Shown one piece after another: positions 60,284 through 60,540 of a stretch of 64,000 nt of DNA. The notes beneath the pieces were generated by a model, which saw only the letters and a list, made by a program, of their open reading frames with translations, did not search any database and was not told the origin of the DNA. Numbering within the stretch: the stretch's first letter is position 1; each line of letters starts with the position of its first letter. Origin of the DNA: a virus; IMG/VR virus record IMGVR_UViG_3300010224_000007. One strand, written 5' to 3'. The position numbers and the translations under genes were made by a program.

Positions 60284-60540
60284 GGGAACTTAATCAGTTG
60301 CCCGCATTCTGTTGCCAAGCTGCGGGCGGCTCCGGATTAGGCAGCGAGAGCTGCGGTTTCCACGAAAGCGACGTTGTCGTTTGCGTTTAGTTCGGTGGAC
60401 AGATTGTCGGCCGTACCTTGCCGGAGCGCGTTCCCATTTACACTAAAGCCGTCGATTCCCTTACAGCCCCATAAGAGTTTGGTGGAGCTGGCGGCATCGA
60501 AGCCGCGTCCGTACTTTGTGTTTGTGAGCCCGTATTACGC
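60284..60540 (-). ncRNA. ssrA: Circularly permuted two-piece tmRNA (5' boundary approximate)
   Basis: 3' piece ...GGACGCGGCTTCGATGCCGCCAGCTCCACCA ends at 60480; 9-nt linker; 5' piece GGGGCTG starts at 60470; G3-U70; tag ANDNVAFVETAALAA* at 60384-60337. Confidence 0.92.

Follow-up and report, generated by a model that had tools for sequence, protein, structure and literature searches.

An apparently intact alphaproteobacterial-type two-piece tmRNA gene as a probable accessory of a temperate siphophage

The tmRNA gene and its genomic setting

The stretch of viral DNA considered here, a window of 64,000 nucleotides from an 81,188-base virus record of IMG/VR with an estimated completeness of 99%, carries at about 60542-60296 on the minus strand a circularly permuted (two-piece) tmRNA gene of ~247 nt, identified by Rfam models together with reading of the sequence. 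The order of its parts is permuted, in that the 3' half of the tRNA-like domain, which ends in CCA (60482-60480), precedes the 5' half, from which it is separated by a linker, G1 being at 60470. The general permuted model RF04321 (tmRNA_permuted) covers 60542-60337 end to end and scores 111 bits, with E 8.3e-21 for the 64-kb window, the curated gathering cut-off of Rfam being 47 bits, and this match is far beyond chance. The alphaproteobacterial model RF01849 (alpha_tmRNA) matches 60600-60296 with 71.7 bits, above its own gathering cut-off of 50 bits, while the beta-type two-piece model RF01850 (57 bits against a cut-off of 84) and the cyano-type two-piece model RF01851 (46.3 bits against 70) both fail. 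The one-piece model RF00023 gives no match over the gene, its only trace in the region being an 18-nt fragment at 59924-59941 with 15.8 bits. A first-pass annotation made from the letters alone had already read the locus as a permuted two-piece tmRNA, and all the strings that it quoted are present on the minus strand where it placed them. ARAGORN, which it had suggested running in permuted mode, agrees with Rfam when the threshold is relaxed (-ps), reporting a permuted tmRNA at 60575-60246 with the same tag, ANDNVAFVETAALAA, but at the default threshold the program misses the gene and calls the neighbouring tRNA-Asn alone. The practical lesson is that ARAGORN, run with its defaults, overlooks genes of this kind, which the Rfam tmRNA_permuted model detects.

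The surroundings are those of a phage genome. The window encodes a tail fibre J-like protein, ribonucleotide reductase, an SbcC-like protein, DNA ligase, a family A polymerase and a helicase, as well as RIIA, a peptidase, an RtcB-type RNA ligase and an endonuclease VII/HNH-like protein; RIIA and RtcB lie on one side of the tmRNA, and primase and large terminase on its other side, in the rest of the record. The terminase ORF is truncated at the right end (L170 11359-12782), and the left end opens with the portal and head genes (L169 1-4406). Since the terminase at the right end thus wraps to the portal at the left end, the nominally linear record represents a circularly permuted, essentially complete genome, and the tmRNA, with phage genes on both sides, is carried by the phage as had been proposed. 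No SmpB is encoded in the phage record. Among named phages the closest is Caulobacter phage Seuss, with a polymerase 48.8% identical and a similar gene order; its genome is without a tmRNA. With this phage as the nearest named relative, a soil or rhizosphere alphaproteobacterium is the probable host. Among public sequencing runs, three DNA metagenomes (soil and rhizosphere) are the only ones to contain sampled words of the sequence, ~5% in each case, and no RNA run contains the region.

The tmRNA lies between the RtcB/tRNA-Asn region and a set of small early-type ORFs. Upstream, on the same strand, is the endonuclease VII/HNH-like ORF (60438..61094, minus strand; 218 aa; phrog_3322 E 3.7e-21 and phrog_1035 E 2.2e-17 over residues 22-175), which has no stop codon of its own outside the tmRNA gene: its last 35 codons, 105 nt, extend across the acceptor piece and the linker into the first part of the coding piece, where a UAA in P2a (60440-60438) terminates the frame. 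Downstream, after a 243-nt spacer without any Rfam match, comes a tRNA-Asn(GUU) gene (59978..60053, minus strand; called by ARAGORN, and by the Rfam tRNA model with 63 bits), and further downstream on the same strand the RtcB-type RNA ligase (56531..58144, minus strand; phrog_1075 E 9.7e-89). Between these, also on the minus strand, a tRNA-like match of 112 nt (59687-59798) covers the full 71-position tRNA model with 30 bits, just above the cut-off and with a large insertion; ARAGORN makes no call there. The minus strand from 61400 to 59700 yielded no sigma-70-like promoter, and a terminator-like hairpin (59830-59813) follows the tRNA region. A tyrosine-type integrase (47296-48339, minus strand; phrog_1 E 1.8e-68) lies 13 kb from the tmRNA and is adjoined by a partial tRNA match on the same strand (47192-47250; model positions 6-65; 29.9 bits), which is the likely attP core. 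The phage is accordingly temperate and, with this tRNA fragment as its likely core site, would target a tRNA gene, not ssrA.

Anatomy of the two pieces and support for the helices

The acceptor piece is placed at 60480..60542 on the minus strand, its 5' limit being taken as the start of the RF04321 alignment at 60542, and its parts follow from the sequence and from pair counts. In order it comprises the candidate distal P2 strand GAGCG (60542-60538), the P2a strand ACACAAAGU (60521-60513), the element GGAC (60510-60507), a T arm GCGGC-UUCGAU-GCCGC (60506-60491) with the loop UUCGAU at 60501-60496, the acceptor 3' strand CAGCUCC (60490-60484), the discriminator A73 (60483) and the encoded CCA (60482-60480). 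The intervening linker AACUCUUAU, 9 nt at 60471..60479 on the same strand, is placed alike by Rfam, by the sequence and by ARAGORN. The coding piece (60296..60470, minus strand), its 3' end being taken as the end of the alpha_tmRNA match, opens with the acceptor 5' strand GGGGCUG (60470-60464), in which G1 is 60470 and G3 is 60468. G60468 stands opposite U60486 and forms the G3-U70 pair within a 7-bp acceptor stem, GGGGCUG/CAGCUCC-ACCA. Between the acceptor 5' strand and the second P2a strand, GCUUUAGUGU (60449-60440), which pairs with ACACAAAGU, the sequence reads UAAGGGAAUCGAC. The middle segment of P2 pairs poorly, non-standard pairs being marked there in the Rfam alignment.

The first stem of PK1 is the hairpin CGGC-AAGGUACG-GCCG (60423-60408), with an 8-nt loop, which aligns to the hairpin of the Rfam model; a possible second stem, AGGU (60418-15) with AUCU (60404-01), was read by eye and is without comparative support. 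The resume context CUAAAC directly precedes GCA (60384-60382), the first codon of the tag frame (60337..60384, minus strand), whose 15 codons, GCA...GCC at 60384-60340, encode ANDNVAFVETAALAA and are followed by the stop UAA at 60339-60337, as given by both ARAGORN -ps and the Rfam alignment. The tag starts with ANDN, and its hydrophobic end, just ahead of the stop, is a degradation signal of the ALAA type. It is followed by the PK2 hairpin GCCCGCA-GCUUGGCAACAGAA-UGCGGGC (60300..60327, minus strand; strands 60327-60321 and 60306-60300), the 14-nt loop of which contains GGCAACAGAA at 60316-60307, matching the alpha consensus in the Rfam alignment; the loop of this 3' hairpin, there UUGGCAACAGAA and also given as UGGCAACAGAA, aligns to the alpha consensus CuGGCAACAGAA. 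The alpha form has two pseudoknots, and we follow the PK2 naming of PMC3985003. A second stem of PK2, GAGC (60332-60329) with GCUU (60320-17), appears possible from comparison by eye of three homologues. The hairpin that had been likened to E. coli pk4 is thus present, although its likeness is to the PK2 of the alpha type. The G3-U70 pair, the 9-nt linker, the P2-type pairing of ACACAAAGU with GCUUUAGUGU and the 15-codon tag all lie where the first-pass annotation had put them.

Support for the individual helices was sought in 110 unique alpha-type sequences, viral and cellular, aligned by MAFFT, with pairs counted at the columns of this gene and compared with slid controls. For the acceptor stem, G3-U70 included, 100% of cells are paired (57-70% in slid controls), with covariation at pairs 5 and 6, and the four outer pairs of the T stem are likewise paired in 100% (30-58% in controls). 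The PK2 hairpin is paired in 79% against 40-51%, with up to five pair types per position, which are compensatory, and the P2a core in 86% against 13-53%. The MAFFT alignment, made from sequence only, is unreliable in P2, PK1 and the post-stop regions. P2a, with 9 bp plus a bulge, also reaches p ~0.9 in thermodynamic folding.

Two further helices had been proposed in the first-pass annotation, namely GGGAAC (60435-60430) with GUUCCC (60284..60289, minus strand) as part of the P2-type pairing, and a 7-bp helix, GCUCCGG (60427-60421) with CCGGAGC (60335-60329), closing the tag loop. The complementarities are real, but as helices both are possible but unproven, clear comparative support being absent and the folding unstable. 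GGGAAC/GUUCCC is paired in 38% against 35-43% in slid controls, and GUUCCC lies past the end of the alpha tmRNA homology, the mature RNA probably not including it; just past the tmRNA, a hairpin formed locally with a GNRA-type loop, UUCC-C-CUC GCAA GGG-U-GGAA (60269-60288, minus strand), rivals this pairing. For the 7-bp helix the corresponding value is 51% against 29-44%, a figure from a badly aligned region, and an alignment-free duplex test gives z -2.6 for this gene and a median of 0.2 across 89 homologues, a test which also misses the accepted distal P2 helix and is therefore of low power. Perfect helices are about as frequent in the gene as in shuffled sequences (2 against a mean of 1.7 for 7-mers, 7 against 7.7 for 6-mers). 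The 7-bp helix is, moreover, mutually exclusive with the distal P2 of the model (GAGCG/CGCUC), with the possible second stem of PK2 (GAGC/GCUU) and with a helix-5-like pairing with the tag end. In nested folding it has p 0.8-1.0 for 3' ends at 60296, 60280 and 60160 and 0.01 for an end at 60230, where GAGCG/CGCUC instead reaches 0.95, and with an end at 60262 GUUCCC is split between GGGAAC and the local GCAA-loop hairpin. Since the prediction of both extra helices changes with the chosen 3' end, nested folding cannot decide on the distal helices.

The known determinants of a functional tmRNA are intact: the 7-bp acceptor stem, G3-U70, ACCA, the T arm, the GGAC/UCGAC elements, the UAAAC-GCA context, an open 15-codon frame ending in ALAA and a stop, and the PK2 hairpin. 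This bears on the question of whether the gene could be a decaying relic, captured from a host or from another phage, no longer expressed or functional and in the course of being overwritten by the endonuclease ORF. The 105-nt extension of that ORF into the gene, the lack of a promoter on the minus strand nearby, the poorly paired middle segment of P2, the rejection at the default threshold of ARAGORN and the existence of related phages that live without a tmRNA would all be in keeping with decay; against this, every known determinant is preserved, and of two other viral copies one scores above its 111 bits and one below (128 and 84 bits), such that we regard a relic as unlikely. Our preferred reading, which we hold with considerable confidence, is that an intact alphaproteobacterial-type two-piece tmRNA (ssrA) is an accessory gene of this ~81-kb temperate siphophage.

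Lineage, relatives and the origin of the permutation

The first-pass annotation had further regarded the T-arm end of the gene as enteric-like and had suggested an independently permuted, minimal tmRNA, in effect one arising from a one-piece, enteric-like ancestor apart from the alpha, beta and cyano two-piece lineages. It is true that the T loop UUCGAU is nearer to a canonical T loop than is the GGCAGUA type found in most alpha tmRNAs (81/110 in the aligned set), and that the alpha_tmRNA score is modest (71.7 bits), the general permuted model scoring higher. Yet the T arm GGACGCGGCUUCGAUGCCGCC is only 1-2 bases off that of chromosomal ssrA in Agrobacterium, Rhizobium and Mesorhizobium, the 6-nt loop included. 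A scan of genomes, one per species, for the same 6-nt T-loop spacing combined with a short linker and an ANDN tag returned 13 chromosomal ssrA genes, belonging to Mesorhizobium, Agrobacterium, Rhizobium, Ferirhizobium, Metarhizobium, Oryzifoliimicrobium, one member of the Rhizobiaceae and one Magnetospirillum (the last two metagenome-assembled). The T arms of these two-piece genes read GGACGCGGYUUCGAWRCCGCC, as compared with GGACGCGGCUUCGAUGCCGCC here, and all have the GGCAACAGAA hairpin. The same T arm, 6-nt loop and hairpin being found in Rhizobiales ssrA, the end of the phage gene is an ordinary one of Rhizobiales type, and independent permutation is unnecessary as an explanation. In the same direction point the ANDN start of the tag, which is the commonest in both the viral and the cellular alpha-type sets, the fit of the PK2 loop GGCAACAGAA to the alpha consensus (in cellular and viral homologues the loop is identical and the stems differ), the passing of the cut-off for alpha only among the alpha, beta and cyano models, and the silence of the one-piece model over the gene. 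An independent permutation is therefore not supported, and we consider it very improbable.

Compared with the chromosomal alpha two-piece tmRNAs of Caulobacter and Rhizobiales (RF01849; Keiler et al. 2000, cited in PMC3985003), the phage gene has in common the gene order, the G3-U70 acceptor stem and the PK1 hairpin, and with the Rhizobiales chromosomal form in particular the T arm with a 6-nt UUCGAW loop, the ANDN...ALAA tag and the PK2 hairpin with the GGCAACAGAA loop. It differs in its dimensions, the linker being 9 nt as against ~28-30 nt in chromosomal alpha tmRNA and the whole gene ~247 nt as against a model length of 355. Unlike the Rhizobiales chromosomal genes it is without ~45 nt between the stop codon and PK2, a segment of 58-60 nt in these and of 8-27 nt in other viral copies; nor does it form the 5' hairpin present in the alpha model. 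A compact two-piece tmRNA was also seen in a 7.5-kb contig of a metagenome-assembled Magnetospirillum sp. (L148), with a 17-nt linker, the tag ANDNVALAAAA and 19 nt from stop to PK2, and is nearer to the phage-type compact form than to the Rhizobiales chromosomal form.

The description of the gene as minimal stands insofar as the gene is compact, but it is relative, as both its size and a short linker are common among the at least 120 viral contigs that a loose permuted-tmRNA pattern scan of IMG/VR returned, the size being usual for alpha-type tmRNAs of viral contigs. Among the viral contigs listed the linkers measure 4-34 nt, with 4-9 nt in 23 of ~120; the distance from G1 to the AACAGAA loop is mostly ~130-160 nt (158 nt here), and most carry ANDN-type tags. 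Examples such as L027/L177, whose 9-nt linker TAACTTTAT is close to the present one, L173 and L176 share the architecture, the size, short UAU-ending linkers, ANDN tags and a PK2 loop AACAGAA ~155-160 nt after G1, but BLAST aligns the tRNA-like domain only, at 83-85% over ~65 nt, and the tag and stems differ, so that they are family members and not close relatives.

In pattern scans of viral, metagenome and genome contigs no close relative of this tmRNA was found, only distant members of the family, and no such contig had the same acceptor stem and 5' domain except for unrelated types; blastn against 50,697 phage records gave no DNA similarity to any tmRNA at E 1e-5. As no close relatives were found, selection on this copy is not measurable. 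BLAST against 401 evenly sampled alphaproteobacterial genomes, and against the four genomes whose T arm resembles this one most, yielded matches of 24-36 nt only, the identity to cellular ssrA copies being confined to stretches of ~30-36 nt. With no near-identical cellular ssrA among these genomes, the gene is not a simple recent capture; it was such a capture, shown by near-identity to a host ssrA, that the first-pass annotation had named as counting against its proposal. A related RtcB occurs in phages at 21 loci, and a tmRNA accompanies it in one of the 21 records, where it is of a different alpha subtype; since most of the phages with a related RtcB, and Seuss as well, are without a tmRNA, the gene is dispensable for the group. 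As far as the sampled data show, the tmRNA is an accessory gene of sporadic occurrence, from a lineage that is old, diverged and carried by phages.

That the gene might instead be host DNA or an att-site remnant, a piece of host ssrA taken at excision or a host flank, is scarcely credible, for although the phage is temperate by its integrase and ssrA is a known integration target (PMC11915505, PMC9004378), the gene is complete and not a 3' fragment, it lies 13 kb from an integrase with its own tRNA-fragment site (47192-47250), there are phage genes on both sides of it in a record that closes on itself, and its matches to cellular ssrA do not exceed ~30-36 nt in the 401 sampled alphaproteobacteria and those four genomes with the closest T arm.

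Proposed expression and role in infection

On the reading preferred here, that of an intact accessory tmRNA, expression would begin with transcription of the minus strand, probably on one transcript with the endonuclease gene that precedes it and the tRNA-Asn that follows. With no promoter nearby and a terminator-like hairpin after the tRNA region, co-transcription followed by tRNA-type processing is the simplest reading. By analogy with known two-piece tmRNA (PMC3985003), host RNase P would cut 5' of G60470 and 3' trimming would remove the 9-nt linker, exposing the CCA, while the acceptor stem and P2 would keep both pieces joined. The RNA would then be charged by host AlaRS via G3-U70, and host SmpB and EF-Tu would bring the charged RNA to ribosomes stalled on broken mRNA, where translation would resume at GCA and append ANDNVAFVETAALAA, the ALAA end of which would serve as a ClpXP-type degradation signal. 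Because the phage has no SmpB, the RNA must rely on that of the host, as had been anticipated, and likewise on host AlaRS, EF-Tu, RNase P and ClpXP. What the phage would gain may be spare ribosome-rescue capacity during infection, at a time when host and phage RNA is cut.

The overlap with the endonuclease ORF allows a more speculative reading. If the tmRNA is excised from a shared transcript, each round of maturation, at the 5' end of the acceptor piece and at the RNase P site 60471/60470, would leave a non-stop endonuclease mRNA, the product of which would be tagged by the released tmRNA itself. We think this improbable, but if true it would constitute a built-in brake on a potentially toxic nuclease. 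In a wider version, RtcB, tRNA-Asn, the tRNA-like RNAs and the tmRNA might together form one RNA-damage response island, a proposal that we rate as equally doubtful. A 152-kb viral contig (L143) encodes a RtcB (8001-9368; 45% identity) and, ~4 kb downstream, an alpha-type permuted tmRNA (13210-13525, plus strand) with the tag ANDNFACEARLAA; this second, independent pairing of RtcB and tmRNA in a phage fits the theme of RNA damage, but is anecdotal.

Two-piece tmRNAs of phages have been published before, with 53 such forms among 133 unique phage tmRNAs in the study of the Methylophilales phage Melnitz (Buchholz et al. 2022, PMC9004378); phage tmRNA sequences number 79 in the tmRNA database (PMC11915505). 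No new question is opened by the present gene, and a separate origin of the permutation, which would have been the interesting part, is unsupported. Like the tmRNAs of Melnitz, of pelagimyophages and of some cyanophages (PMC9004378), it is a permuted ssrA of the host lineage in a phage genome without a phage SmpB; it differs from them in having no glutamine riboswitch or other attached Rfam element. The phages of that study are mostly marine or aquatic T4-like myophages, whereas the carrier here is a temperate Seuss-like siphophage with partial DNA matches in soil and rhizosphere metagenomes. A temperate siphophage of soil or rhizosphere thus joins the list of phages with a two-piece tmRNA of the host lineage, which has so far been mostly a marine and aquatic one (PMC9004378).
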